Assembly (NCBI RefSeq): GCF_026571515.1
Contig: NW_026859562.1
Location: 372,001 to 436,000 of the forward strand
Direction: 5' to 3'
Origin: Ruditapes philippinarum
Taxonomy: Eukaryota
DNA: 64,000 nucleotides
The notes under the pieces: model-generated
What the model was told of the DNA's origin: nothing
What the model saw: only the letters and a program-made list of their open reading frames with translations
The model's database searches: none
Shown here: positions 18,901-63,355 of the stretch, piece after piece
How the letters are laid out: the number at the start of each line of letters is the position of its first letter
Numbering within the stretch: the first letter of the stretch is position 1
Translations under genes and position numbers: made by a program

Positions 18901-21085
18901 AAATTAGGGTTATGTCGTCTGCTAACATGTAAACTCAACTGACTCCTACTCCTAAAAACAATAAAATCAAATACGTATGTTAAAAGATCACATTTTGATT
19001 AATTTGAAAAAAATAATCAGACAAAGTTTTATGTAAATTAAAAAGTCTTTTCCATTTCAAAACTACAAATTTTCATATACCTAATTATGAACCAAGTCAC
19101 AAAGAAAAATAAATTTCAATATGTGATATATGATGAATAAAATCATATACCAATAAATAATTGTCAATACATGTTTTGTTTTATTTGGCTTCTTCAGTTG
19201 ACTTATAAATAACAAAGGAAATACAGTCATATACACTCATTTAACAAACAAGATCTTAAGGAATTTCAAATTTCAATTTCATCATTGAAAAAGCTACTCA
19301 AATTCAAACAGAACAAATAGAAAACCTACCGTAAAATTCCTATTAAATGCCCCCGGGGGCTAAACATTTTCCAAAAGGGGGGCTATTATTACAACACGTT
19401 TTTCCTAAATCCAAAAATCATTGAAAATACATTTAGTGTAACATGGGTTGGTAATAACATTAAAATGTGTTAAGATTTTAAAGTTCATGTGATACATTTT
19501 TGTGTTTACTATGAAATAAAATGGATTCTGAAGGATTTGAATAAAATTACGGATTTATTAAAGAGTTCACCACTCATGAGCAGATTTTTTTCCATATCAA
19601 AAAGCCTGGGGGGGGGCTTTTATTAGGGGAGGGGCGTTTATTAGGAATTTTACGGTATACATAAATAGATTTACCTAAAGTAAGTTCCGCAATCTTTGCA
19701 TTCAAACATTTTTTCACCTGTATGCATAGTTATGTGATCTTGAAGATTTTGTGTTGATGACAAATGTTTTTTACATATATGACACTCATACTTCTCACGA
19801 AGATGAATTTTCCGATGTTTCGATATTTCTGCTTCAGTAACAAACGCTTCATCACAATATCTACATTTATAATTCTTTTCTAGAGGATGTTCTTGAAGGC
19901 AATGGCGTTTTACATGTAAGCTGTTTTGGAAATACTTGTTACAATATTTACATTGTATAGGAGGTTTTTTTGTTTCTAAATAATCTTCCTTCTTGACCTT
20001 TCTTTTTCTATTTTTTATTGCATCTTTTTTATTTGACTTTAATATCTGTTTTTTCCTTGCTCCTTTTTGTTTTCTCTCCTTCACCTTATTCTTTAATGAT
20101 TTAGAATTTAAACTTTTCATATTCTTTATCATGTTTTTAACTAATTTGTTGGTGTTGTCAATATCTTTCTGACCCTCAGAGGATACATATTCATCATCAT
20201 TAGAATCCGGGAACCAAGGATTGGATCCCTCATCTGTATCTCCTGAATAAGGATCATCCGGTGTCAATATTGGAACTTTCACATCATTGTCTAAACCTTC
20301 ATTTTTGGAAATTTCACCATTATCAACATTTAGCTGGGACTCAGATGTCTCTACCTTAACAGTAACAGACACCTCATCATCTCCTACCTCGCTTTCCATT
20401 TCTGTGTAATCCTGTCTGTTCAAGGTATCTGTCAGAATTTCCTCAGTTTGAGTCTCTGTGCATACAAGGTTAAATGTCTTACCAACACACTCCAAATCAG
20501 TTTGAGTTTCATGGCAAGTGGTGTCATATTTCGGGAAAGCTGTACGTGTACGATGATCATAATGGTACGAGCCTCCAGGTGTGTGCAGCTGAAGATGTTC
20601 ATGTAGCTGCCAAATCATTGGATACAAAGCAGAACATCCTCCACAGTGAAACATGCAGTCAACACCATAAGGTAATGAGGATCTTAGATCTGTAAAGTAT
20701 GTTAAAATAATGAAAAAAATGTCATATTACATGTACTGTACAAGTGGTTAATTTTGCGGCGTGGAAATATTTGTGAATTGAAATTATTCGCAGATATTTG
20801 ATCACGCAAAAATAATTCCTTCTAAGGCAAACTTTCTTCTATCATTTGAACACGTTGAAGAAGAAATAGAATATATATACATGTAGCAGTAAAAATATTC
20901 AAATATATATATAACATGGCATCATATATAATTTTTGATGGCCACGCTAAAAGTAAGTACACTTATTTATGTTTACAGAATAAAAGTGTATATATACCTT
21001 GAGCTACTTCATTCTGATAAGCTGTTCTTGGTGCTGGTATTGGAAGCCTCCAATCTAATCTATATCCAGCTTGACTTGGATCCAT
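12983..21085 (-). CDS. C2H2 zinc-finger protein A (~662 aa; 1 N-terminal finger plus a 10-finger array)
   Basis: Coding exons (minus): 21085-20998, 20689-19675, 18951-18824, 16639-16437, 14522-14367, 13381-12983. All GT-AG, phases 1,2,1,0,0, total 1989 nt, open. HTGEKPF linkers, acidic and Lys-rich central region. The start may lie further upstream because the frame is open to the acceptor at 21099. Confidence 0.9.
13396..13632. mobile_element. Palindromic MITE (~237 bp hairpin)
   Basis: Arms tgagc..catgacaaaaccaacata..ccagcatggatccagaccagcctgcgca mirrored by tgcgcaggctggtctggatccatgctgg..tatgttggttttg..gctca. A second copy lies at 36261-36448. Confidence 0.85.
14858..16020. mobile_element. 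Non-autonomous element with a ~150-bp terminal hairpin and short subterminal inverted repeats
   Basis: Hairpin 14871-15020 centred on gagtggcgtagccacgag. tttattttatgct (15027) is inverted as agcataaaataaa (16009). Confidence 0.6.
16868..17173. mobile_element. TTAA-flanked MITE (Kolobok-like termini)
   Basis: ttaa|agctgcatgcctccagat ... atctggaggcgtgttgct|t ttaa. Confidence 0.6.
17354..18705 (+). mobile_element. Helentron/HINE-like non-autonomous element carrying ~7 tandem ~146-bp repeats
   Basis: Begins aactagaac. Repeated core aaagggcaataactctgtaattagtcaagatggagttatggttcttgtgcactgcac, then a (gacc)n microsatellite and a terminal cccc..ttcg..ggggta hairpin. Confidence 0.75.
19329..19655. 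mobile_element. Tc1/mariner-type MITE
   Basis: TA|ccgtaaaattcctattaaatgcccc ... ggggcgtttattaggaattttacgg|TA. Confidence 0.8.
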
Positions 21086-28276: not shown

Positions 28277-29138
28277 CTTATTAGTTGGACTAGCCCTAGG
28301 TAGTCCTAATATGTACATGTACACTCCAACGTCTTATCGACTCGTACATAAGTACCTTTAGCAAAACACGAGAGAATAAACAGACATCAACCACTTTGAT
28401 CTGTCCATTCTCTCATAATAATATAATGAACATTTTTATGCCCCCAAAGGGCGGCATATTAAAATGATGTACCGTCTGTCTGTCCTTACAAACATATATA
28501 GATACTTAGGTGGCTATGGAAGCAATAGGTAACAGTAAATTTCCTTTGATGCTATTCATTCAATAAGCTCTTATGTGGCTACTTTTTCTGTTACGTGGCT
28601 AAAAGAACATTGTTAGAGAGAACAAAAGAGTAGCTGCTTAAATACCTAACTTTGAGGACAGACGTCTGTGCATCCCAACTTTATTCGTGTCCGGACTGTA
28701 ACTTTGTCATACATTGAGGTATTTTTGAAAAAGCTTGGCACAAATGTCTACCACATCAAAACAATGTGTTGCATCCAAGACCCTTATCCAAAGGTGTTAA
28801 GTTTGCTATAAATAGCACTTCATTTCACAAAAACAATTTTAAGCAATTAGTTTCTTTTATTCTCTTTTCTTTTCATAATACCTGCATGCTTAAGAAACCT
28901 TTTCAGGGGCATTTGTCAATATCATGACAGGTTGACAGCTCTTGTTTTGAAGTATCTTGTTAAATGTACTGCCAAATTATAAGTATTGTCATACGTAATA
29001 ATATATATTAGCTAATAATGAAATACCATTGATTGTCGTAGTAATATAGTTACACTTTTATTCTTTTCTTTACAGTTTCAATCTTGAACGTAATGCTATT
29101 AGCAAGGTGGAGCAGTAATTGTAAAGGAAAAAGCTACC

Positions 29139-34874
<5,736 letters not shown>

Positions 34875-40024: not shown

Positions 40025-43000
40025 TCAAGATTGGCTTGGATGTTCATCATTCTCTCTGAAAATAAAACGTGATTATGTAGGGATTAAAAACAACAAAAAA
40101 CATAAAAAAGTTCACTATTCTTTCAATAGAATACATGCAATATTGAATAATAGTTATGATAGTGAATATTGCATGGGCTGTTTTGGCAGGTTGTATCACT
40201 CAAGTTAATAATGTAAATGGTTCTCCCATGACCCTGTGGGGAAAGTGTGAACCCCATTCAACACAATCTAAAAGACAGATAAAATCCATCAATGTTGCAC
40301 ATCCCTGTAATTTTCATTTTACTTTATTCAAATGCTTAATTACCTAAACATAGACTAGAATTGTATATGGATAGTTTACCTTTGACCAAGACATAGACTA
40401 GGATTGTATAGGGATAGTTTACTGTAGAATTGTATATGGATAGTTTACAGTTGTCCTAGACATAGACTAGAATTGTATATGGATAGTTTACCATTGATCT
40501 AGACATAGACCAGAATTGTATAGGGATAGTATACCATTGTCCTAGACATAGACTACAATTGTATATGGATAGTTTACCATTGATCTAGACATAGACTAGG
40601 ATTGTATAGGGATAGTTTACCATTGTCCTAGACATAGACTACAATGGTATATGGATAGTATACCATTGATCTAGACATAGACTACAATTGTATATGGATA
40701 GTTTACCATTGATCTAGACATAGACTAGGATTGTATAGGGATAGTTTACCATTGTCCTAGACATAGACTACAATTGTATATGGATAGTTTACCATTGATC
40801 TAGACATAGACTAGAATTGTATATGGATAGTTTACCATTGATCTAGACATAGACTACAATTGTATAGGGATAGTTTACCATTGATGTAGAATTAGACTAG
40901 AATTGTATATGGATGGTTTACCATTGACCTACACATAGACTTGAATTGTATAGGGATAGTTTACCATTGAATTGTATAGGGATAGTTTACTGTTGATCTA
41001 GACATAGACTAGAATTGTATAGGGATAGTTTACCATTGATCTAGACATAGACTAGAATTGTATATGGATAGTTTACCATTGACCTAGACATAGACTAGAA
41101 TTGTATAGGGATAGTTTACCATTGACCTAAACATAGACTAGGATTGTATAGGGATAGTTTACCATTGATCTAGACATAGACTAGAATTGTATATGGATAG
41201 TTTACCATTGATCTAGACATAGACTAGAATTGTATAGGGATAGTTTACTGACAGAATTGTATATGGATAGTTTACCATTGACCTAGACATAGACTTGAAT
41301 TGTATAGGAATAGTTTACCATTGATCTAGACATAGACTAGAATTGTATAGGGATAGTTTACCGTTGATCTAGACATAGACTAGGATTGTATAGGGATAGT
41401 TTACCGTTGGTCATATTCCAAGCCATGATCACCAGTACTATCATAGTGAGATAAGTATTCTTGTTGAACATCTTCTTTGAAGTCTTTTATGAAATATGTC
41501 CAACATCTCACCACCTTGCTATCTACAAATAGTAAACAAATGTCATTATCATCCTTTTCCAAAAAATCTACAGAATGATTAGATTAGGCAATCTGTTCAT
41601 ATAGAATGGATATGAACTAACATAATGTCCACTATATACTGGTGTCATTGACAAGGCATTATCATAGCTTGAGGTAGTATTTAGAAAGTTAGAATTTCAT
41701 TATGACAGGGTATATGACATAAAATATCTGAAAACCAAAAAAACATTGAAGTTACTTTATTGTAACATTCTTAATTAATTTCATTGATACTACACCAGAA
41801 ATGTTTAAATAAAACTATTTGGTACATAATAAACGACAGGGAAGGTATTACCATTTTTACATTTTTTCATTATCTTTGTTTGTTTTTCTGATTCTGAACA
41901 AGTTATAATAGAACTAGTGTGTAACATTTGGTAAAGTCCTTCTGTACAATCTTGTCATAAAATCTTTTTTGACGTCACTGTTTTGTGCAGATCAGTAAAT
42001 GCATTATGAATAAAGATCAATAAAGAAACATATTTGAACCTTTTATTAATTCAACTTCTATTTCTGTCCTCTCGTAAAATTCTGGATGTCCTTCAAAACG
42101 GTCAAGTTCTTTTAGGGAATCATCGTTAACTTGATATACTTCCCCTTTCACTGCCTTTTTTTTTACATGAAAAATAAAAAAAAATCAAACTGGGCTCTGT
42201 ACAGTTGGTACAGTCACATATTCAGCAGGTCAAATTCATTCAAAGATGTTAATTTGTTTCTCCAGTGGTTACTTTAAAATGCATACTTATCAGCTGATTT
42301 CATATTTTATCATTTTACCTTAATTCTCCAAAAAAGGCACCCATGCATTTACAACTTCAAAGAATTTTTTTTATTTGGATAAATATGGTACATGAATATA
42401 TACAACAGCCTTTCAAATAGTTCTAAAGCCCCTGTTTCTTTCAGGTTTGAACAAATCAATAATCAGTAAACAGAAAATGTTAAAATTGTGCAAGCATAAT
42501 AAAGTACTAACGACATGTAAAATGTACTATTTTTATAAATGATACATGTTCTAGCAACAACTAAAATTATATTGAACTTGTATTCTGATACAACAGGTTT
42601 CAACATTGTTTGGTCACTTATTTAATCCCTTACCTTGTCTATAATCCCCAACCTTTCCCAAACTAAACATATACATGTATATGTATCTTAATTTTTCTTT
42701 GTTGCTTGAAATGAAAGAAATGTTATCACAAACTTATATATACATGTAATTTCTAATTGCATGTTACATGAATAAAACCCACTGCAGTTTAGATTGTTTG
42801 GGAAAGGTTGTGGTTATAGAGGGGGTTTGGACTGGTAGTGACCAATCAAAGCACCAAACACCTGTTCATACCTTGCCCTTTTCCTCCCTGTTCAATAACA
42901 TAGGTAAGTTCCATTGATCTCTATTTATTATTAACGGGTACTTCTTACAGGTTTCTGCTAGACCTAGAAACTCTACACATGGTAGTGAATTCATAAAGTA

Positions 43001-43063
43001 CTCATTTGGTTGACCTTTTTTCAGAGTCCCATACATAAAAACCATGTACAATGTCTCAGCCAT
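40025..43063 (-). CDS. GGACT: Gamma-glutamylaminecyclotransferase (GGACT/A2LD1, AIG2-like fold), 151 aa
   Basis: Exons (minus): 43063-42872, 42154-42040, 41522-41405, 40055-40025; 456 nt, open. Motifs VFMYGTLKKGQPN, YPLII, VKGEVYQV, LDRFEGHPEFYER (catalytic Glu), CWTYF and YDSTGDHGLEY. AATAAA on the minus strand at 39821-39826. Confidence 0.9.
40345..41410. repeat. 43-bp minisatellite (~24 copies) in the last GGACT intron
   Basis: Unit tagacatagactagaattgtatatggatagtttaccattgatc. Confidence 0.95.
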
Positions 43064-44019: not shown

Positions 44020-45204
44020 AGGACATTTTGGCCCCAAACCAAATCGGCCCCAGTGGAAAAATCGGCCCCTGGACGTTTCGGCCATTTTCTGCAAGACGTT
44101 TCGGCCCTACTATAGTATATTGCTTGATTGATTAACAACAATTAATTTAATTACAATTAAACAATTATGACACTTTAATTCTTTAAATCATTATTTATTA
44201 TCTTTTGATCTCTTGAACCATTTAGATATACGTTAATGTTTTTAAACGTGTAACAAACAATAAATGCAGGTTAATCCTTAATTTATAAAACAAACCACTA
44301 AAACTTCTGGATTAAGAAAGTTAATTACAATTTTTCCTTAGAAAACATTTATTATCTTTTGATCTTAATTAAACTATACGTAAATTTTTCAATGTGTAAC
44401 TAGTTAACTGTTTATAGCTTTATGCTAATTGGCGGTAAGTAATATCAGAGAAAACTTCAAAAGATTTTGTTTGTTTGTGTATTATATTTTTTCAAAATAA
44501 AGTTTATGTTCTGTTCTGTTTAATTGTATTAATAAATTATTATCTATATATTTGTTTGTTTGTGTATTATATTTTTTCAAATATTAATAAAGTTTATGTT
44601 CTGTTCTGTTTGATTACTTTCCCCCTTCTATTCCTTCCCTACTATTATAACCTTATTCTTATACAAAATGATTTATACGGGGAAGTCAAAGACCGGGCCC
44701 GCGAAGCGGGTCCGGGCTTTGGCTTGCCCGGCTATAGACTACACGTGTATATTTAAAAGAAAATGAAATAAAAAACAATTAAAAAATATATAGAATTCTA
44801 TACCTATCAATGAAATTTTCAGTGTCAGTTCTAGTTGGGCGCCGCCATTTACAATGTAATAGGCGGGGTATTCCGATAACGGAACAAATCTCAACTTTTC
44901 GGATAAATGATAATCGTCGAGTGTTCCGAGTGAAAACGGAAGCGGTGCATATAATACCGAATGACACTTTTAAACGGAAAGAATGAAAGGAATTCTTAAC
45001 AACTTCCCCGTTCATAGGCTTTGCCTAAGTTCATATTATATATATCAATTGATTCATTTATTTATTGAAATGCTATGAATATACCGGTTTAAAAACACAG
45101 TACTTATTCTAGGGCCGATTTGGTAAAGGGCCGAAACATCTGGGGCCGAAACATCTTGGGTAATTTGGGGCCGATACGTCTTGGGGCCGAAACGTCTCGA
45201 AATC
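44020..45204. mobile_element. DNA element with subterminal tttcggccc/gggccgaaa repeats; contains a nested 360-bp element at 44668-45029
   Basis: Left cluster acgtttcggccc is inverted as gggccgaaacgt at the right end; a related end lies at 26790-26845. The nested element has the hairpin gaccgggcccgcgaagcgggtccgg and an inverted copy at 58148-60119. Confidence 0.65.
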
Positions 45205-46197: not shown

Positions 46198-46664
46198 ATA
46201 AACGATGTCTTTTATGAACAGTTTCCTGACAACGCTCCTGCTAGTCATAATCAGAATTGATTGTTTTAAAAGCAGTAACATGTAGATGCAGATAAAGACT
46301 GAATGTTTAAAGTGAAAAATAATCATTTTTCATTGACCTGCCTATAGTGTAATGTTAACATTTAGAGCGTCTTTATGCTATATTTGAATATTAACGCAAA
46401 TGACGTCTTGTTAAAATATATGCATGCACGTCCATGCAATGGCGTTGCAAAAGCAGCACGGGACTTCAGGTGTGTGATAAATATATATATTTTGCCACGT
46501 TGAGTATGTTCAAGTTTCCATTTTTGTGTATTTCATAATAGATTGGTCATTGAATTTAATTAACTTTTCAACATGATGTACAATATATGTTATTATTTTT
46601 ATGAATAATATGTTTATGTACTGTTTTTCAGACTGTGTAATTAGAGTGAGACATATGTGGCAAA

Positions 46665-49600
46665 ATGTCTTTTTACATATCACCCCCAGGCGGCAATATC
46701 TCTTTGCAGAAATTGTCACAATTTGCTGTGACAAGGTTCAACTTTCTAGTCAAGGTAACATTGAAAATGATTGATGCATACCAACATGTCAATTAATAAA
46801 TTTTGATTTGATGTTGTAAAGTCGGCATGCATTTAGTTGACTGGGATATTGAATTTGATAAAAATTAAAAATTGTTCAATGTTGACATTTAAGGCTTTCA
46901 GCTTTGGCATTATCTTTTTCTGACACAGATATTTTGATTTAGGATAATCAATTTTAATCAAGAAAATAATGCCAAAATAAGAGGAAAATTGAAAAGTACA
47001 ACACATCAACACCAGAGCTGGTTGTTTTTTTACTGGTTTCGATTATATCGAACCTTCGTCAGGAGAAAATAATATTTTGAATTAAAAACTACAAGGCAAT
47101 GTTGTCATTTCCAAGCCTAGGATAAGACAACCTTAGTCCATCAGGAATAGAACTTTTTGCATGACCCTCATTATTTCGTATAACATTCAAAAAGACTTTT
47201 GTGTACAAAAATAAACATATTTAGCTGTTTACTTAAATTTATTATAAAAAGTTATTTGATTTACAGATTTATGATACAGGAGGTGATAGGGTGCAAATAT
47301 TTGATATTTTAAATGATGAGGAACAAGTGAATGAATCAGAATGTCTGATAGAGGGGACAGTGAAGGACAGACTGTCACACTTCATACTCAGGTTAATGGA
47401 TTAAATTTAAATGTTTCTCTAGCTTTTACAAACCATATTTCATATGATATCAGAAAATGAAATGTATGAAACCATAATGGCATTTGTGTGTTGACAGTTC
47501 TAAATCTATACAGCTTCTCATTTTTGAATTCATTTCTTTATATACACTGACAGTGACAGTAGCGTAATGATGCAGTAATTTCTTGTCAATTGATACACAT
47601 GCTACCATTTTTAGCAACTGACTTTACACATTGCACAAGTCATAATTGGTTTTATATCTGGTCCAGAACCTCCTGGTTGTTATTAGTCACATGTGAAACT
47701 TAACTATCATCATGAGTATTATGTGACTATGATGTAACTATGATGTCTTATTTTATGTTATCACACAAAATAACCTTTCTAACAAGCTAGATTTAGTTTT
47801 AAATGTTTTTAGAATGGTTATTTTCACTAAACCTGAAACATTTAAAAGTGGCAATGTTTTATAGTTATATCCAATCATGTTTAGAAGTAAATACCAATAC
47901 ATTAATAATTTTCAACATGAGGTGAGATATATGCAAGGATATTAAATGTAAATTTGCTGATACCTACCTTTACTGGTTTCAGCTAATTCATATTATGTTA
48001 TGTACACATGTATATAGGTGATACTTATACTTTATTACCAATTTTTCTTCCAGACTAGCCTGTTGCTATGACAGAGATATGGCTGAATTTTTGGTGAAAG
48101 CAGAAACATTATTATTTGACTTCCGGTTCAATTGTATGACCGAAGATGAGCTTTGTAACCTATTTAAATCAGTAGACTATCCAAGACATGGTAGCAGAGC
48201 CTGTGATTTACCGTCATATGTAACACAGTTTTTGAAAACAATGTCTTTGATTAAAGGAGATAATAAAAAATGGAGGACTGTAGTCAAAAAGTACTTGAAG
48301 GGGGATATGGATTGTTTTATGCTACCATTTTTGACTGTGTTACAATTTGTTGCAACAAGACAGGTTGTGTTGAAGCATGGAATTGCTCATGTACCAGTCT
48401 GTAAACTAAGGGAAACTGTAACCAGTCTATTTGAAGAGCTCATACAGAAAGGTGTGAAACATGCAGCTAAAGTTTTTAAAACAGAAGATAAAAGGATAAA
48501 AATTCTTCTTAAAACAATAAAGGTTTGTAGAAAATGTTTCTCATTTAATCAAATGCAAAAATATGAAACAAAAATTTAACATCATGATTAATACTTTAAT
48601 GTTTGTCAGTAACATATTGTGGGGAGTCTTACTAGTAACAATTGGCAAGGTCACAAACACAGTGTAATACTAAATCAAGAGTTACATGTACAATCTTTAT
48701 ACATGTATACATGTAGCTTAATTCACATTATGCATTGAGTTTATAGGACATTTTCAAGTTATCAATTAATCAATTATATAAGTAAAATAATTATGTAATA
48801 CCAATTTATCAAGCTTATTGTGTTATGAAATGCCCATTAAAAAAACTATTTACTTTTTTAAATTAATTTCCTTGGGCAATGTTGTTATTTATCCTTCGTG
48901 CGGAGTAAATTATAAACTTGAAAAGATTTTTGGCGAAATATAAACTTTTTTCATTTTTACCTGTTCAGTATTATACATCTGTAAGAAATTTTAAATTTTG
49001 GTTATATTTTCACATATTTGTATTGTTATTTGTAGGTTATGTTTTACAAACATTACAAGGATAAATATCCAGGAAACCAGCACCATTATGATCTGTGTCA
49101 CACAGAAGTAGACAATGTCTCTGAGATGTTCCCTCCATGTATGTCACATCTTCATAGGTCTCTGAGAATGTCACACAGGCTGAAACATCATTCCAGGGTT
49201 TTTAATCTTATACTGTCTATCTATTACGTAATATGTGTATGTAAGATCAGTCTTGCTGTTAGTTAATTTATTCACATCAAGTTAATTAATTCCTTCACAT
49301 CCAGTGGTCTTGTATGTTTTATATTTAACTTAATTTATTTATCTATACACCTCCAGTATAGCTAGTTACTCAAATACTTAATAGCAATTAACATGAAACT
49401 TTGTATGTATAAATCTTGGTAAGTTGTACCCGTCACACCCATTTTTGGCTCTAAAGGTCAAGGTCACTGTTTTACTTCCAATAAGAAAACATAAAATTGG
49501 CCTTTTAAATCAAATGACTTTGAGCTTCAGTATTAATTTTCAAAAAATTGTGTGTGGACACACCTTGAAGTGTTCTACCTGCCACACTTTTTCCCGGGTC

Positions 49601-52600
49601 AAAAAATCAAAGGTCAAGGGCCTTCAATAAGAAAGCATTAAACTTGACATAAAATCAAAGTGCATTGAACTAGGTTCTTTATACTTTGTAAATGGATGAA
49701 CTTTTATGAGTTCTACCTGTTCAATCCATTACATGTAAGCGTGGGTTCGATCCCCGGGAGATGCTTTGGTAGTTTAGCGCGGAGGAAGGTAGTCTAGTAC
49801 TGGTGTAACTCTCCGGGAATGATGGTTAGGAAACTTTGTAACCCACCTATATGACTGAAATGCTGTTGGGAAAAGGCGTAAAATGAAACAAACAAACAAA
49901 CAGATTAAGTGTTAAGAGGTCATTGTGACCCTTTATGCAATCTCTTTATTTCAAAATAAATAGTAGTTAAATATACAGGACAGAGAAAAGTGGAGGACAC
50001 TGCTCCTTGAACAGTTGTGTTAAGTAGTGGCCCTTAACAGACAGTTGTTTACAGTATTCTTGCATTCTTGTCATTTTCCAGATAAGGGTAACACTTTATG
50101 CCATAATACATGTAATTTATTCCAGATCCAATACTCACTGTTTCTTAAGGAGATTGGGTTACCTATTCATGAAGCTTTAATGTTTTGGAGGAAGGAATAC
50201 ATGCAGTCTCCTAACAAACAAGATGGCTGCCAACATTTATGGTCAAAAGATGAAGGTAGATATACATACAACATCAGACACCTGTATGGTTTAGAAGGTT
50301 CAAGAATCAATTACAGGGGGCACTCTTGTGCTGCTTTACAAGTAAGTTTCTGTGTGAAATGTTAGAAAGTAATATTATTGCTATAGTATTAGTACATTCT
50401 TGTTGCTATAGTTTGGTTGTAAAACATTTTCCCCTCTAAATATGTTTATTGTTAAACCATTAGAAATTCTCTTTATCTGTAACAAAGTGACAAGGTGAGC
50501 TTTTGTGATTACCATTCGTCCGGCCGTAAACTTTTACTTTAAATAACATCTCCTCGTAAACCGCTTAGCCAATTTCATCCAAACGTCACAGGAATGTCCC
50601 TTTGATGGTCACCTTTAAAAATTGTTCAAAGAAATTAATTCCAAGCAGATCTCTGTTGCCATGGCAACCAAAAGAAAAAAACTTGAAAAATCTTGTTTAA
50701 AAAAAAACCCAAAGAGCTAAGATATTTGGCATGAAACATCTTCTATTGAGTGTCTACTAAGTGTTAAAAAAAAAAAGCCCTTGGTTCAAAATTGGCCCCA
50801 CCCCAGGGGATAATTGATTTTCCTTATATATATATAGGTAAAACTTAAAAAACTCCTTTCAAAAATCCAGAGCTTAGATATTAAGTATGATAGTGAGTGT
50901 CTACCAAGTTTGCTCAAATAAAAGCCCAGGGGTCAAAATTGGCCCCGCCCTGGGAGTCATTAATTTTCCTTATATGTATATAGTAAAAAATTTGAAAATC
51001 ATCTTTTAAAAAACTCAAATAGCTATAGTTTAGATATTAAACATGAAACATCTTGTAGTTGGTGTCTACAAAGTTTGCTCAAATAAAAGCCCTGGGGTCA
51101 TTGATTTTCCTTATATATATAATACCTTTAAAAAAAATCCAAAGAGCTAGAGCTTAGATATTAAGAATGAAAAATCTTCTAATGAGTGTCTACCAAGTTT
51201 CTTTTAATTAAAGCTCTTGTGTCAAAATTGCCATCGTCCCATGCAGTCATCGATTTTCCTTATATGTATATTATAGTAAAAACTTAAAAAATATTCTTTA
51301 AAAAACAGAAAGAGCTAGCGCTTAGGTATTAGCATGAAACATCTTGTGAGTGTCTACTAAGTTTGTTCAAATAAAAGTCTTGGGGTCAAAATTGGCCCTG
51401 CCCTGTGGGGTCATTGATTTTTATGCCCCCGCCATGTAATGGCCGGGGCATATAGTGTTACCCTGTTCCGTCATTCTGTCATTCCGTAATCATCAGTTTC
51501 CGTTCATTATCTTAGTAATGGTTGCACACATTCAACTCAAATTTGACATATGGATAATTATGTCATAAAAAAATACAGGTCAAGTTCGAATTTGGTCATG
51601 GTTCGATGATATTTGGCAGAGTTATGCCCCTTTTACTTTGAAAATAATATGAAATTTTCAGTTTCCGTTCATTATCTCCCCAACGGTACAACACATTCAA
51701 CTCAAACTTGACATATGTATATGCATGAGAAAATACAGGTCAAGTTCGAATTTGGTCATGGTTTGATGATTTTTGGCAGAGTTATGGCCCTTTTACTTTA
51801 AAAATAATATGAAATTTTCAGTTTCCGTTCATTATCTCCCCTACGGTACAACACACTCAACTCAAACTTGACATATGGATATGTCATGAGAAAATACAGG
51901 TCAAGTTCGAATTTGGTCATGGTTCGATGATCTTTGGCAGAGTTATGCCCCTTTTACTTTAAAATAATATGAAATTTTCAGTTTCTGTTTATTATCTCTC
52001 CAACGGTACAACACATTCAACTCAAATTTGACATATGGATATGTTTTTGGAATACCCAGGGCAAGTTCGAATTTGGTCATGGTTCAATGATTTTTGGCAG
52101 AGTAATGCCCCTTTCACTTTAAAATAATATGAAATTTACAGTTTCTGTTCATTATCTACCCAACAGTGTTACATATTCAACTCAAATTTTACATATGGAT
52201 ATGTTAAAGGAATGGGCAGGTCAAGTTGGAATTTGGTCATGGTTCGATGATTTTTTGGCAGAGTTATGACCATTCCCCTTTGAAAATAATATAGATACAT
52301 CTTAGGAATAAGCAGTTTAAGTTTGAATTTGGTCGTGGTTCACTGATTTTGGACAAACTTATCTTTCCTGAATGTTGGAAAAATTTTGAACTTTCAGTTT
52401 CAGCACTCATACTTTTGTGGAAATGTATGTAGCCATTATTTTGGCTACAAATATGCAATATGCTATTTTCAAAAGGTTAAGACTGAATAATTTCAGTGCC
52501 TTGAACATTGTATGAAAATGGTTTGTGTTAACTTTGAAAAGTTTTAAGGGCTTTGAACTTAAAATGAAAAAAATAATTTGTGCAAACATATTGGGAACTA

Positions 52601-54366
52601 AATATTATAACATCTGAAATTTTGGCTGCATGCGGGGGCGTCCGTGGCATAATGACACATTTCTAGTGTGCACATCTTTTGGAACTGTTGTTTTCCCTAA
52701 GCAATAGCAACCAGTTATTATTTAACACATGCACTATTTCAGAAACAAATAAGAACTTTGTGATATCAGTTAAAGAATAAGATTTTATAAATAAGATTTT
52801 TTATCAGCTTTTATTTATAGTTTACAATATTACTTGTTCTTTGTCGTAGAGAGTTTCTATATTCAGGTGAGCGATTTCAGGGCCATCATGGCCCTCTTGT
52901 TTTTTTGTGTTTGTTTTTGTTTTTTTTGTTTTTATGAGCAGTCAATATGTGGTCATGTATTTAATGTTTTGATAGATATGTAGTATTATAAACAGCAGAT
53001 TCATCTACATTGTATAATCTTTGTTACCGTGACTTCGAAAATGTTGTAATATGGTAAGATTTTATTTTATTCTGAGTATTTAAGATCTTATACAGTGTGC
53101 CAGAAATATTTGTTGATATCATTCACACCAAAATATACATTGAATGTAAGTTAATCTATTCAAGGAGAATTACCATGGTCCCCATGAGAATAGTGGATGC
53201 CCATTCAGCCATTTTGATTCTTCTCATATGTTGGACTTATTATACATGAATGGAATATCATCTGCTTCATCTACAGAAAAAATACTGAAGCTTTCTGAAG
53301 AGAAACAATATTCACAAGCTTGCACTCTATACTTTATGCTAAAAATACAGGTTTGATTTTAAAGTTATAATATTATCCCGTATGTTTGCCATGTGTTCAA
53401 AGTCATAAGTAGGTCTTTTAAATAGAACTAAGAAGAGGTATATTATGAGTAAAAAGTATTCAAAATAAAAAAAAATCAGTTATCTTGTACTACTTACTCA
53501 TGTGAAGAAATTAGCAGTTCTTTACAGATAGAACTTGTACATAATTTGATTTCATTATTTAGTAACTGCCAACCTGTAATTTCTAACAAGCAAGGAAAAC
53601 AAATAGGAACAAGTCTGAATTTCACTGGTTTAGGTATACATAAAGAATTTTGATCATTCACAATGTGTACAGAATGTTTACCTCTTCTTTTGTTGCAATA
53701 TCTTTCTATAAAATGTCATTGTAATTTTTTAATTTGTAGTTTTTTTTAATGTGGATATTTTTATTGTAGAAGAAAGAATATGAGACTGGATTGCTGAAGA
53801 AGATTAATCACAAATACTGTGACAAATGTGAAAGTCCTGAGTCTAAGGCTGAACTTGTCACAGTCCTGGGGAATTCACACCAGGACAATGTTATTAACAA
53901 CAATGACATAGTTGGAACATGTACTCCTTGTGACACTGAATGCAACCATCCAGACACTTCAAGCTGTATTTCCCATGATAGAATTCAGTTCAATCAGAAA
54001 AAGTGTTTATGTGACAGTAGTAGACAAACTAGTGAAGATGATGTGATCCCAACAACAAAATCATATAATCATGGTTTTGTAATCAAGCACAAAAGCATTC
54101 ACAAAAGAAATGGTAAAACTTGTTCCTGTCAAAGTGTTGTATCGGACAAATTAGTGAAAGATACAGCTTCAGACAGTGATCTTTCAAACTGTGATTGCTT
54201 TGATGTTGAGAACATAGCAAATACTAAGTTAAGTGAAACAAAGTTTGATGGTAAGAAAGAAATGATGGATTGTCATGAACATAGTGGAGACAATATGAAA
54301 GTAGTGTTGAAACCTGCTGAATATTATAGCAAGTTTAAATTAATCTTAAATGAATTAAAACTATGA
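46665..54366 (+). CDS. DNA primase large subunit-like protein (divergent PRIM2/PriL family member, ~614 aa)
   Basis: Exons: 46665-46754, 47267-47391, 48054-48522, 49036-49197, 50126-50341, 53165-53350, 53770-54366; 1845 nt, open, phases 0,2,0,0,0,0. Motifs FYISPPGGNISL, DRLSHFILRLACC, FPPCM, LKHHSRIQYSLFLKEIG, YTYNIRHLYGLEG, SC, GCPF and YSQAC, so all four Fe-S cysteines are present. AATAAA at 54369. Confidence 0.88.
49739..49901 (+). mobile_element. 5'-truncated tRNA-derived SINE, family 1
   Basis: B box ggttcgatccc; body matches the other two copies; (aaac)n tail. Confidence 0.85.
50485..52900 (-). mobile_element. HINE-like element with ~150-bp repeats, interrupted by a second HINE-like element (51419-52667) with 160-bp repeats
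   Basis: Outer ends ggtgagctttt..cgtccggccgt and caggtgagcgatttcagggccatcatggccctcttgtt. Inner period is 160 (gtttccgttcattatct at 51661, 51821, 51981, 52141). Confidence 0.75.
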
Positions 54367-55171
54367 AGAATAAAGTATTTATTTGTTAAGCTGATACTAG
54401 TATTTTGTTACGATATGTAGTCACAACAGATTAAATATTTAAAGGAAGCTGTGTGTCTGTCAAATATTTGGATATGAATATGAAAAATTATGTGGCTTCA
54501 TTTGGATATGAATATGTGGCTTCATACATTTCTACTTGCCAATCCAGCAACTTGCCACATAGGAATTCAAGGAAATGAAAAAAATACAATGAAGATGCTT
54601 TAGCAAAAGAATCATAAAATTCTAAAATAGTTACCAAGTAATGAAATTTAACCTTTCATTTGTAAATTGATGTCATCTAAATGAAAAAAAAGGACAAAAG
54701 TGTTTACTAACAAACTTCATTATATCAGCACCTGTCTTGACATAAAACTATCTCTTCTAAACCATTAATTATGTACAGGAAATAAATTTGTATTCTATTA
54801 TTTATTTCTAATATTTAACTAACTTGTGACATTTGTACTTGATAATTATAGCATTTGGCGTGGCATTAATGTGTCAATGTGCCTTTTATTCTAAACAAAC
54901 AACAAACAAATAAATTTGGATAAAAAGTTGATGATGAATATTGGACAGTTTTGATCTCACCATTAAATAGCTATTTGTGCACATGTGAGTTGAGCGGATA
55001 TTTTGGAAAATGTCTACCTAAACTCTTGGTCTGTAAACTACATTTTAATTTGTGTAGAATCATTAGGCTAGAAAATCTTTAACAAGAGGACAATTATATC
55101 GGCCTTTTATCACAGTAACGGACAATTTATATCAATAATTATACATGTAAATGAAAATTGGGTATTACCGG

Positions 55172-56569: not shown

Positions 56570-59500
56570 ATGGCTGCTGATCCGGAGAATGAAAAGTTTT
56601 ACCTTGAACGTATCCTTTTATACATTATAACCTATGCGATTATTTTTATTTTTATATTTGATTTTGAAAGTGTGGACTTACTTGAAAAAATGCGAACAAT
56701 CTTTCTCGAAATTATTTTTTGTTCAATTCTTTTACAATGTCACATATTTTCGCGACGTATTGTTTTTTTTCAAAATCCTTTCCCTGTATTGTTATACTGA
56801 ATCTGTACGCATAAAAAATTAGCAAATACTACATCGGCAAACATGTTATCGTGAATAAATCAAATTATCTCTTATCGCGTGAACAGGTCAACCAAAAAGC
56901 AAACAAAACCCTTTGTTTCATATTCCATGATCAGATAATGTAAAACTGAGAACCGGGTCACTGAATTTACTGAACACTACTTTTTGTTAGCAAAATACAA
57001 AACTTACTTGTTGTTAAATTGTTATTAAAATTATATTGAACTCTTAAATGCAATAACATTTATTCAATTTATACATTTTCCCATATCATTATTCAACTTT
57101 TCTAATCTCTTTTCTATAAGATTCGCCATCGTCTAGTTGCTCACACCTCTCCAGAACATCACGCCATGGCCATCCCTTGTATTATAGGTTATTCACAGTA
57201 ACTTCAGACTGTCATATATTCTCCTTTCCTATGACGGTATACCACTGGAACCACCTACCCATAGTCCAACTAATTAGACTTGTCAAAGAGACATCAAGAT
57301 AATTTTGAACAGGCTACACCTACCACCTGCAGTTGCCCTACTCCCTACCCAAGGGCAGTTCTGTGCAGCCATAGCTTGCATTTAACATGTCTCGCCCTAG
57401 TTTTCCAGCACCCTAGTGTTTTTAACGTTTTTAATATTCTTCTTTTAATTTATCCTGTTTTCAAACAGCTCTTTAACTTTCTAGAGATTTTGACACGCAG
57501 ATATTTCTATGTCCCCACAAGGGGTTTGACATTAATGGAAGATAGATACTGTAGAACCAATTAAAACAATCTGGTAACCAGAGTACATTGACACTTATTC
57601 TACAGAAAAACATTGAAATTAAGTATCATTTATGTCTTTGATTAAAATTTTTACCATGAACACTATTCAATAACATGTACAAAGCTACAGAACCTATCAG
57701 CATCTGTTGGTTTTTTGGGGAGTTTTGCATCGCGAAAACTGCGCACACTACATCTTTCTAGACAATAATTTTTTCAATATTATTTTTTGATGGGTAAAAT
57801 ATTCTGGTAGATAGTACTACCAGAATATTTCTTAATAATTTATAACAAAAGAAAATTATTTATTTGTCTCCAAATGATGTTTACAACCATTCACTGGTAT
57901 GTCACTCTTAAAATCAGCAGTTTGAGATTCTCATTGAATGGAGCCCTATCCAGGTTATGTTGTTGGGGTTATTATTATATCAGATACAATTTGTAGTACC
58001 AGTGACTCTTGATAACCCCAACAGTTTCTTGTCTTGTATTTCCATAGTTGAAGTGTTCGTTTATTTGTTTTCATGAAATATAAACCTTGTTGTGTGTTTC
58101 TCTCATATTAGTAATAGTAATTGTAGTTATGATATATAATATGAAATTAGGCAAAGCCTATGAATGGGGAAGTCATTCATTTTTAGCTCACCTGAGCTTG
58201 CTCAGGGTGAGCTTTTAGGATCGATGAATGTCCGTCGTCCGTCCGGCCGTCCACAATTGCTTGTGAACACTCTAGCGGTCGCATTTTTGCCTCAATCATC
58301 ATCAAACTTGGTCAGGATGCTTATCTAGTTGAAAGCTCGGATGAGTTCGAACATGGGTCATCTCAGATGAAAAACTAGGTCACAAGAGCTAAAAATAGAA
58401 AAACCTTGTGAACACTCTAGAGGTCACATTTTTGACCCAATCTTCATCAAACTTGGTCAGGATGTTTGTCTAGGTGATAGCTCGGATGAGTTCGAATATG
58501 GGTCATCTCGGATGAAAAAGTAGGTCACAGGAGCTATAAATAGAAAAACCTTGTGAACACTCTAGTGGTCACATTTTTGAACCAATCATCATCAAACTTG
58601 GTCAGAATGCTTGTCTAGTCAATTGCTTTGGATGAGTTCGAACATGGGTCATCTCTGATGAAAAACTAGGTCACAGGAGCTAAAATAGAAAAACCTTGTG
58701 ACCACTCTAGTGGTCACATTTTTGACCCAATCATCATCAAACTTTGTCAGGATGCTTGTTTAGATAATAGCTCGGATGAGTTCGAATATGGGTCATCTCG
58801 GATGAAAAACTAGGTCACCGGAGCTATAAATAGAAAAACCTTGTTAACACTCTAGCGGTCACATTTTTGCATCAATCATCATCAAACTTGGTCAGGATGC
58901 TTATCTAGTTGATAGCTTGGATGAGTTCGAACATGGGTCATCTCGGATGAAAAAGTAGGTCACCGGAGCTAAAAATAGAAAAACCTTGTTAACACTTTAG
59001 CGGTCACATTTTTGCATCAATCATCATCAAACTTGATCAAGATGCTTGTCTAGGTAATAACTCGGATGAGTTCGAACATGGGTCATCTCGGATGAAAAAC
59101 TAGGTCACAGGAGCTAAAAATAGAAAAACCTTGTTAACACTCTAGTGGTCACAATTTTGACTCAATTGTCATCAAACTTGGTCAGGAAACTTGTCTAGGT
59201 CATTGCTGGGAAGAAATCGAACATGGGACATCTCGGATGAAAAACTAGGTCACAGGAGCTAAAAAATAGAAAAATCTTGTTAACACTCTAGTGGCTACTG
59301 TTGTGATCCAAATATTCTGTTAATTGGTCTGAAAGTTTGTTTTGATGATTTCTAAGTCAAGATCGAACATGGGTCATCTTGGATGAAAAACTAGGTCACA
59401 CCGCCCAAATATGGAAAAACCTTGTTAACATTCTAGTGGTCACATTTTCGACTCCATTATCATCAAACTTGGTCAGAATGCTTGTCTAGGTAATTGCTTG

Positions 59501-60434
59501 GATGAGTTCGAAATCGCATGTGAAACTAGGTCACCGGAGCTAAAAATAGAAAAATCTTGTTAACACTCTAGTTGCTACTGTTTTGATCCAAGTATCCTGG
59601 AAATTGGTCTGAAAGTTTGTTTTGATGATTTCTAGGTCAAGTTTGAATATGTGTCACCTGGGTAAAAAAACTAGGTCGCACTGCTCAAATATGGATAATC
59701 CTTGTTAACACTGTAGTGGTCACATTTTTGACTCACCTGTCATGAGACTTGGTCAGAATGCTTGTCTAGGTAATTGTTTGGATGAGTTTGATAATTCAGG
59801 TGAGCGATCTAGGGCCATCATGGCCCTCTTGTTTACTTTACATTTCCCATTTTATAGGTGGCGTTTGGTATTTAATGCACCACTTCCGTTTTCACTTAAT
59901 GGAACACGGCCCTTTAATTATTAAGCCAAACATTTCTAATTGTTCCGTTGTTGGAATACTCCTCCTAACTAGACATGACACTGAAAATTTCACTGATAGG
60001 TATAGAAATCTATATAAATTTTTAATTGTTTTTTATTTGATTTCCTTTTAAGTATACACATGAAGTACATAGCCTGGGGCAAGCGAAAGCCTAAGCCTTT
60101 GATTTCCCTGTATAAATCAAGTGTAATACTCAAGGAAAAACATCACTGAGTGATGCATATTGAATCCAAAACATAAGAATTTATCATTTTAAGAAAAGTA
60201 TTTAAATTTAAACTGTTTCACTTCACATCTCACAGGATAATCTCAGTGCATATGTTTTTTTATAGGTGCCTTTGTTTTATGGGCATATTTTCTATTAAAA
60301 TGCAATAATTTAGTAGTGAAAGGTGTCTTGTATATTTCCTTAACATTGATTCTCAGGTGAGCAAATTACAGTGGAGTCAGATGATGAGTTTCAATATGAA
60401 GAAGTACCCATTGATGAAGATTTTGTCACACCAG
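56570..60434 (+). CDS. SPAG16: Sperm-associated antigen 16 (PF20 axonemal central-pair WD40 protein), first two coding exons; the gene continues past the window
   Basis: Exons 56570-56609 and 60357-60434 splice (phase 1) to MAADPENEKFYLEREQITVESDDEFQYEEVPIDEDFVTP, resembling the remembered vertebrate SPAG16 segment YYLEQVTITEASEDDYEYEEIP. An X-box lies upstream. Confidence 0.75.
58180..59833 (-). mobile_element. HINE-like element with ~10 tandem 145-bp repeats, inserted into the element at 58148-60119
   Basis: Ends ttttagctcacctgagc..(cgtc)n and caggtgagcgatctagggccatcatggccctcttgtt. Period 145 (tgtgaacactctag at 58263, 58407, 58552). Confidence 0.85.
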
Positions 60435-61349: not shown

Positions 61350-63355
61350 TAAGCCATGCAACAGTTGACTTTCCATAGGAAATAGTGACTTCCATAGCAA
61401 CTTTTGACTTTCCCTAGCAACTTTTGACTTTTTAAGTAGCCTGAGTGACTCCTATAGAAACAAGTGACTTCCACAGCAACCATTGACATACACAGCAACC
61501 ATTTACTTACATAGTAACCGTTGACTTACATAGCAACCATTGACTTACATAGTAACCATTGACTTACATATAGCAACCATTGACTTACTTGTAGTAACCA
61601 TTGACTTACACAGTAACCATTGACTTACATATAGTAACCATTGACTTACATATAGTAACCATTGACTTACAAAGCAACCATTGACTTACATAGTAACCAT
61701 TGACTTACATAGCAACCATTGACTTACATTTAGTAACCATTGACTTACATAGAAGCCATTGACTTACATACAGTAACCATTGACTTACATAGTAGCCATT
61801 GACTTACATATAGTAACCATTGACTTACATAACAACCATCGACTTACATAGCAACCATTGACTTACATAGAAACCATTGACTTACATAGTAACCATTGAC
61901 TTATATAGTAACCATTGACTTACATAGTAACCATTGACTTACATAGCAACCGTTGACTTACACATAGTAACCATTGACTTACAAAGCAACCATTGACTTA
62001 CATATAGTAACCATTGACTTACAGAGCAACCATTGACGTAATTACAGAGCAACCATTGACTTACAAAACAACCATTGACTTACATATAACCATTGACTTA
62101 CATATAGTAACCATTGACTTACACAGCAACCATTGACTTACAATACAACCATTGACTTAACATAGTAACCATTGACTTACAAAGTAACCATTGTCTTACA
62201 TAGTTACCATTAACTTACATAGCAACCATTGACTTACATATAGTAACCATTGACTTACATAGTAACCATTGACTTACATAGCAACCATTGACTTACATAG
62301 CAACCATTGACTGACATAGTAACCATTGACTTACATAACAACCATTGACTTACATAGCAACCATTAACTTACACAGTAACCACTGACTTACATATTAACC
62401 ATTGACTTACAAAGTAACCATTGGCTTACACAGTAACCATTGACTAACATAGTAACAATTGACTTACATAGTAACCATTGACTTACAAAGTAACCATTGA
62501 CTTACATAGCAACCATTGACTTACATAGCAACCATAAAAAAGTAACCATTGACTAACACATTGTAACCATTGACTTACAAAGTAACCATTGGCTTACATA
62601 GTAATCATTGACTTACATAGTAACCATTGACTAACATAGTAACCATTGACTTACACAGCAACCATTGACTTACATAGTAACCATTGACTTACATAGTAAC
62701 CATTGACTTACATAGCAACCATTGACTTACATGTAGTAACCATTGACATACATAACAACCATTGACTTACATAGCAACCATTGACTTACAAATTAACCAT
62801 TGACTGGCACATAGTAACCATTGATTTACACAGCAACCATTGATTAAATAGTAACCATTGATTTACATAACAACCATTGATTTACATAGCAACCATTGAC
62901 TTACATAGTAACCATTGACTTTCATATAGTTACCATTGACTTACATATAGTAACCATTGACTTACATATAGCAACCATTGACTTACATAGTAACCATTGA
63001 CCCTTATATAGTAACCATTGGCTTACATAGTAACCATTGGCTTACATAGTAACCATTGACTTACATAGTAACCATTGACTTACATAGTAACCATTGGCTA
63101 AAATAGCAACCATTGACTAACATAACAACTATTTATTTACATAGCAACCATTGACTTACATAGCAACCTGTGAGTCCCATAGCAATCAATGACTTTTTGT
63201 AGCAACCATTGACTTCTATAGCAACTGTTGGCTTTCCTTAACCACTAGTGACTTCCATACCAACAATTGATTTCCATAGTGACTAGTGACTTTACATGTG
63301 CACTATTTCAGATGCAGATTTAAATTTTGATTCCAGTTGACCTAGATTTTGACCA
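61350..63355 (-). repeat. 19-bp minisatellite (ttgacttacatag[c/t]aacca; ~85-90 homogeneous copies at 61480-63170) with degenerate flanking units
   Basis: Direct reading of 19-21 bp units. Confidence 0.95.

Follow-up and report, generated by a model that had tools for sequence, protein, structure and literature searches.

The eukaryotic primase is usually treated as a single pair of subunits, PRIM1 and PRIM2, tied to DNA polymerase alpha (Pol alpha). In the iron–sulphur (Fe-S) domain of human PRIM2, p58C, R306 binds the primer triphosphate, H303 stacks on the first purine, H351 and the loop 355-366 lie against the template, and a role is also given for N348 (PMC5333051), the Fe-S ligand cysteines are listed in PMC13255074, and roles have been described for both R302 and R306, with R302 termed key for priming (PMC10415149). 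Within the N-terminal domain (p58N) the smaller subdomain binds PRIM1 (PMC5333051), it is bounded by hinge loops at Xenopus 153-157 and 216-219 (bioRxiv 2023.03.16.533013), and the length of the linker helps set primer length (bioRxiv 2022.05.02.490354). Other contacts include a POLA1 C-terminal motif bound by PRIM2 (PMC3390648), CST, which contacts PRIM2N through TEN1 (bioRxiv 2021.12.16.472968), and GINS: in the human replisome M1 and F3 of the PRIM2 tail insert into PSF2, and deletion of the tail results in longer lagging-strand products (PMC10501992). Here we describe a gene at 46665..54366 on the forward strand of a 64,000-nucleotide stretch of Ruditapes philippinarum DNA (contig NW_026859562.1, positions 372,001 to 436,000, hereafter the window) which, judged from sequence, belongs to a second, ancient family of primase large subunits, distinct from replicative PRIM2. 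The paralog resembles canonical PRIM2 (p58/Pri2; PF04104, PF26466; PDB 4rr2, 5f0q, 8g9f) in its two-domain layout, four Fe-S cysteines, predicted fold, linker span and residues R306, H303, H351 and Y345/Y347 (human numbering). In contrast, it shares only ~31-33% identity with canonical PRIM2, falls in a separate clade, has no N-terminal tail and a shorter 49-99 segment, carries a C-x-H-x-W loop, has H300 replaced by Arg, a variable R302 and a changed H-P-N motif, and in many members has a long insert before the final helix.

The case for a separate family comes from trees and from species that carry both copies. A search with exon 5 gave 37 relatives among 37 candidates and a 26-sequence profile recovered 132 proteins; two larger searches were also made, an exhaustive profile search (best 150 of 3415 matches listed) and one with the canonical oyster PRIM2 (best 120 of 2626 matches listed). 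In total 368 proteins were fetched, the 359 of at least 300 residues were aligned together with the window protein, and 355 rows entered the FastTree tree after five gappy rows were dropped. Here the window protein sits in a clade of 145 of the 355 rows (itself and 144 database rows). In a 50-row IQ-TREE tree, 18 paralog rows were separated from 18 canonical animal rows in 200 of 200 bootstrap trees, and an approximately unbiased (AU) test on 22 rows rejected a grouping of the window with canonical bivalve PRIM2 (p-AU 1e-80). The closest relative is a Mercenaria protein (86% identity in exon 5, 75% over 411 columns); the window protein shares 61% identity with the Mercenaria paralog vs. 32% with the Mercenaria canonical PRIM2. 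Each of 32 species, chosen by name from both match lists, contributed one row to the paralog clade and another to that of canonical animals. An earlier note, a model's reading of the letters of the window, had proposed an uncharacterised paralog rather than the replicative p58, and the trees, the AU test and the 32 species with both copies support that proposal.

The gene itself reads through cleanly in AT-rich animal DNA (GC content ~0.32). Exon by exon on the forward strand, seven exons join into 1845 nucleotides, or 614 codons plus a stop, with no internal stops and GT-AG boundaries at all six introns, and an in-frame TGA lies 18 nucleotides 5' of the ATG (46647-46649). Contigs from two runs guessed to be RNA cross the predicted junctions (exons 3-4-5-6 in X1 record 2, 4-5 in X2 record 6 and 6-7 in X2 record 8), their joints falling 0-3 nucleotides from the predicted splice sites, and contigs extend to 54780 (X1 record 5) and 54718 (X2 record 11). 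Exons 1 and 2 have the same contig depth as X1 record 2 (19.6), their joints not being among the rows listed. Exons 1 and 2 together are too short to account for the 357 letters that precede exon 3 in X1 record 2, and we therefore infer an additional non-coding exon of ~110 nucleotides further upstream. Within a selected subset (40 of 468 rows) there were 23 exonic differences in 18 codons, six silent and 12 replacing, none of them at conserved sites. An out-of-frame ATG is present at 46655-46657, 10 nucleotides 5' of the start codon, and tandem acceptors 3 nucleotides apart precede exon 7 (53768-53773), alternative use of which would make a difference of one Lys.

Domain identity follows the same order. 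PF04104 matches four of the seven exons in sequence (exons 3-6; E 9e-4, 4e-7, 7e-14 and 3e-7), three of them above the curated cut-off, and exon 5 matches the human, Xenopus and yeast p58 chains in PDB; exons 1 and 2, which are short, gave no Pfam match when searched singly. The N-terminal domain PF26466 is annotated on full-length orthologues such as that of Mercenaria (P0001), whose model also carries an extra 16-residue piece at the exon 3-4 junction, and alignment of the family profile with human and Xenopus PRIM2 starts at residue 27-29. The window cysteines C263, C350, C366 and C407 align with human C287, C367, C384 and C424, which are invariant in the paralog clade (144/144, 142/142, 141/141 and 140/140, respectively). 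The predicted structure of the Mercenaria orthologue is mostly confident to residue 445, except for two short stretches, and matches the complex of p58C with template-primer in 5f0q (1.9 A, 171 columns); a single-sequence fold of a bee orthologue reached a predicted local distance difference test (pLDDT) score of 37. Most of exon 7 is a poorly conserved insert of ~180 residues within the Fe-S domain, absent from the earlier note, which is predicted to be disordered in the Mercenaria orthologue, with a confidently folded final helix. Across the family the insert before the last helix ranges from none to hundreds of residues, and because of this range it is probably not central to function. What the earlier note had read in the letters otherwise stood up well: the intact seven-exon PriL-type open reading frame of ~614 residues agrees with the 1845-nucleotide join, the GT-AG introns and the spliced contigs, its four Fe-S cysteines (PPC, SC, GCPF, AC) are those aligned to the human ligands, and its quoted motifs, including KPAEYY and the equivalents of R306 and Y-x-YNIRH, are all found in the window.

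Several of the residues that hold primer and template in human p58C are kept, and positions 302 and 348 vary in the family. In exon 4, R276, K278, H279 and R282 correspond to human H300, R302, H303 and R306, and in exon 5, Y328, Y330, N331 and H334 correspond to Y345, Y347, N348 and H351, so that at the triphosphate and template positions R302, H303, R306, N348 and H351 the window has K, H, R, N and H. In the paralog clade R306 and H303 are each present in 143 of 144 rows, H351 in 140 of 143 and Y347 in 142 of 142. The span of the linker between the R245 and C287 equivalents is also unchanged (median 44 residues in paralogs vs. 43 in canonical rows). In the N-terminal domain, we took the limits of the PRIM1-facing subdomain from PMC5333051 and bioRxiv 2023.03.16.533013. 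Its second half (segment 184-212) is as similar between the two clades (42% identity) as it is within the paralogs (43%), and it retains R198 (139/143) and G205 (140/143).

Other features have been changed or lost throughout the family. At the N-terminus, 114 of 124 paralogs have five or fewer residues before the column of Y29, whilst 138 of 139 canonical rows have at least 15; as the earlier note had stated, the window protein begins directly at MSFY..PP, its start lying at the position of human L26 with the tail missing. Segment 49-99 is shorter (median 39 residues in paralogs vs. 55.5 in canonical rows), and within it segment 60-97 shares 7% identity between clades vs. 32% within paralogs and has a family-specific motif. 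At position 300 the paralogs have Arg (140 of 144) where canonical rows have His (139 of 141), a family-wide substitution that the earlier note had missed. Between the equivalents of W327 and Y345 the window has a loop of 25 residues, vs. a median of 17 in canonical animal PRIM2, and this loop contains Trp in 142 of 142 paralogs, H-x-W in 132 and C-x-H-x-W in 122, with the last pattern in none of the 118 canonical rows scored; the extra C-x-H-x-W loop reported from the window is a feature of the family. With regard to a possible zinc site, loop Cys/His residues average 3.8 in members without His at human 365 vs. 3.1 in the others, a comparison confounded by insect kinship. At the C-terminus, the helix of exon 7 that begins K-P-x-x-Y-Y aligns with the canonical H-P-N-Q motif, in which the His found in all canonical animals is replaced by Lys, Ser or Arg in the paralogs.

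Judged by its database members, the second family is far wider than one lineage. Named rows in the clade come from the sponge Sycon, bivalves, gastropods, a chiton, an octopus, annelids, nemerteans, a brachiopod, a bdelloid rotifer, a horsehair worm and the nematode Romanomermis, from chelicerates, crustaceans and many insect orders, and from echinoderms, hemichordates and amphioxus. No vertebrate, tunicate, fly, cnidarian or flatworm is found among the 94 named of the 144 database clade rows, which are best matches only and do not test for loss; a single Prim2 is listed in the available text of a Drosophila review (PMC7714529). Intron positions also recur in metagenome loci: of 23 that were fetched, those in which the relevant motif was seen have an AG before I283 in 16 of 18 cases and a GT after Q354 in 18 of 19, counts which include ten apparently closely related loci (L008-L017). 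Another locus, L001:3315-4568, holds a family member aligned over residues 1-419 in one stretch with both conserved introns absent. Like that of Mercenaria with its extra 16 residues, two further orthologue models look fused or mis-spliced, that of Saccostrea echinata (P0044), which has small-GTPase domains, and that of Operophtera (P0085), which has a cytochrome b5-like domain.

On this sampling it can safely be stated that the duplication predates the sponge-bilaterian split, whilst a pre-animal origin is only suggested. In the 50-row tree a protein of the choanoflagellate Didymoeca costata (P0123) joins the paralog clade with support of 99/96 and one of the chytrid Cladochytrium (P0116) with 97/99. 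Both have in common with the family an additional Arg preceding Y345 and the short 49-99 segment (28-29 residues, where the medians of canonical groups are 55.5 and 51); they are without the C-x-H-x-W loop and keep His at 300, and may be early members. An animal-only origin was weakly rejected (p-AU 0.04), but alternative placements were not (Cladochytrium with fungi, p 0.38; Didymoeca with canonical animals, p 0.078), and because both proteins are long branches the pre-animal origin rests mainly on the shared indels. Three GC-rich (0.60-0.66) metagenome loci (L021:82-174, L022:165-359 and L023:187-261) carry a related R-Y-x-Y-x-I-R-H-L-Y-G-L-E-G motif with no Cys/His loop seen, these are possibly protist relatives.

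Database orthologues are named 'DNA primase large subunit-like', 'PRI2-like' or 'uncharacterized' (for example Mercenaria LOC123561011 and Homarus 'DNA primase large subunit-like 2'), and these automatic '-like' names do not separate orthologues of the paralog from canonical PRIM2, which is often named alike. The ESM Atlas held generic PriL clusters only. Archaeal PriX and baculovirus LEF-2, both of which we take to be PriL-derived accessory factors, appeared as distant PriL-related clusters (feature scores 0.84-0.87 vs. 0.97-0.98 for eukaryotic PRIM2 clusters). Unlike these, the window gene is interrupted by spliceosomal introns and its N-domain is of eukaryotic type; viral relatives were not found. 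A viral or mobile origin was rejected, as 16 pattern matches in viral contigs gave no confirmed case, and there was no viral structural relative at E <= 0.001 among the at least 500 structures counted. A literature search found no published description of the family, although most subscription papers and supplements lay outside its reach and a supplementary table could list it; the available text of a 2025 paper on replisome evolution does not mention a eukaryotic PriL duplicate (PMC12680538). We conclude that this is a real, conserved and apparently undescribed variant family of a well-known subunit.

With regard to function, we give about an even chance to a role as an alternative primase subunit, which would work with PRIM1 away from the normal replication fork. 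The four cysteines would bind a 4Fe-4S cluster in a domain folded like p58C, and R306, H303, H351 and Y345/Y347 would hold the triphosphate of the initiating nucleotide and the template-primer junction, with the charge of R302 perhaps moved to the family-wide Arg at 300. PRIM1 would be bound by the conserved half of the small subdomain, and because this half is kept an action without PRIM1 is less likely. Without an N-terminal tail there would be no GINS tether, and recruitment would pass to other partners, perhaps via the new loop or the replaced 60-97 segment. Amongst telomere, repair and germline roles, the evidence favours none over the others.

Several observations weigh against such a role. 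In 88 of 124 rows the paralog itself begins with M-x-F, which is also the pattern of the PSF2-binding end, and it may thus still bind GINS, and since yeast with a mutated GINS contact grows comparably to controls (PMC10501992), loss of this contact would be no bar to use at the fork. A basic residue (Arg or Lys) occupies position 302 in only 62 of 144 paralogs vs. 139 of 141 canonical rows, the site being unconstrained in the family; N348 is kept in only 49 of 142 vs. 89 of 141, and conservation falls to 16% in the first half of the small subdomain (146-183). Within-clade identity is lower in paralogs than in canonical rows for the Fe-S core (57% vs. 73%), segment 184-212 (43% vs. 66%) and segment 213-253 (26% vs. 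64%); the paralog family evolves much faster than canonical PRIM2, and partner surfaces may therefore have been lost. As to expression, no run holding the spliced contigs is recorded as RNA and there was no DNA-run control, whilst in two raw RNA runs (4-5% read) exon bins had a depth of ~0-3 per mate direction, like repeat-free intron bins, this background depth implying low or tissue-limited expression there.

The same observations can be arranged into other explanations. The variability at 302 and the replacement of H300, together with changes at G305, G310, G315 and K355, loss of the canonical H-P-N motif, and gain of a bulky loop and a long variable insert within the Fe-S domain, would fit a non-priming regulator, unable to start primers, which would bind PRIM1 or 5'-triphosphate primer junctions and serve as a decoy, brake or primer-end protector. 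We regard this as unlikely, though deserving real weight: the near-invariant R306, H303 and H351 and the constant linker span are as expected of a primer-shuttling domain, and the window has Lys at 302. Rather unlikely, in our view, is a different catalytic partner (another archaeo-eukaryotic primase or a polymerase), or an action alone as an Fe-S protein that binds nucleic-acid ends. Isolated p58C does bind the template-primer junction at ~33 nM (PMC5333051), and N-domain surfaces outside the core have been replaced (7-21% between-clade identity in 60-97, 146-183 and 213-253), yet the whole family retains F188, R198, G205 and the spacing within segment 184-212, and no partner gene adjoins within the window.

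That the paralog stands in for PRIM2 within the ordinary Pol alpha-primase of normal forks in certain tissues or stages, such as gonad or cleavage embryos, seems distinctly unlikely. Such a role would account for the full two-domain architecture, the unchanged linker span, the frequent M-x-F start and the low depth in two bulk RNA runs, but the paralogs have lost the flexible N-terminal tether, and the fixed differences seen across the family would be unnecessary in a simple substitute. That the gene is simply the divergent replicative PRIM2 of its own species, or a decaying duplicate, is scarcely credible. Although co-occurrence of paralog and canonical copies was scored in species other than that of the window, the AU test rejects a canonical bivalve grouping, Mercenaria, the nearest relative, has both copies, and the frame is intact and spliced with orthologues in many phyla. 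An alternative subunit that would work with PRIM1 away from the fork is the reading we retain, and the features of the gene that bear on it are collected in Table 1.

Table 1 Positions in the window of the exons and other features of the second primase large subunit gene.
Feature	Position	Strand	Remarks
5' untranslated part of first coding exon	46631..46664	+	Begins after AG acceptor
Coding exon 1, residues 1-30	46665..46754	+	Protein start at human L26 position; no N-terminal tail
Exon 2, residues 31-72	47267..47391	+	Short family-specific segment replaces human 60-97, then conserved D-x-x-S-H-F helix
Exon 3, residues 72-228	48054..48522	+	Remainder of N-terminal domain; Pfam match, spliced contig
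Residues 161-188, conserved half of small subdomain, predicted to face PRIM1	48319..48402	+	Human 184-212; F188, R198 and G205 kept
Exon 4, residues 229-282	49036..49197	+	Linker; first Fe-S cysteine C263 at 49138-49140; spliced contigs
Exon 5, residues 283-354	50126..50341	+	C-x-H-x-W loop at 50207-50242; second Fe-S cysteine C350 at 50327-50329
Exon 6, residues 355-416	53165..53350	+	Fe-S cysteines C366 (53198-53200) and C407 (53321-53323); spliced contigs
Exon 7, residues 417-614 and stop	53770..54366	+	Variable insert of ~180 residues, then K-P-x-x-Y-Y helix from 54310; spliced contig
Likely 3' untranslated region	54367..54786	+	AATAAA at 54369 and 54781

Around the primase gene, a gamma-glutamylcyclotransferase gene (GGACT/AIG2-like, PF06094) lies head-to-head with it at 42020-43062 on the reverse strand, and a GC-richer stretch at ~44680-44990 could be a shared promoter containing the unlocated 5' exon. 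Two C2H2 zinc-finger genes of opposite orientation, each with one long exon, are found at 12983-20726 (reverse strand) and 29103-34874 (forward strand), and both long exons have a similar F-Y-x-x-x-T-x-T-A-x-P-K-like stretch following the first finger. Dispersed repeats in introns 4 and 5 (49739-49911 and 50477-52900) exhibit very high read depth in the RNA runs and include five copies of a 160-bp unit at 51493-52292. Tandem arrays with units of 43 bp, 145 bp and 19 bp occupy 40356-41409, 58260-59788 and 61454-63215, respectively.

In its broadest form, which we put forward tentatively as possible rather than probable, most animal phyla would possess a second, fork-independent primase composed of PRIM1 and the paralog, of pre-animal age, priming in a dedicated setting such as restart, telomere fill-in or the germline. 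The C-x-H-x-W loop might then hold an additional metal site, and loss from vertebrates and Drosophila would explain why the second primase was overlooked. A second large subunit occurring from sponge to bees, clams, starfish and amphioxus means that many animals may have a priming route outside the standard models. As a natural variant in which the primer-holding core is kept and the GINS tether removed, the paralog would make it possible to test directly what purpose priming serves away from the fork, and with orthologues named in beetles, butterflies, bees, locusts and sea urchins, the family is open to study in tractable animals.

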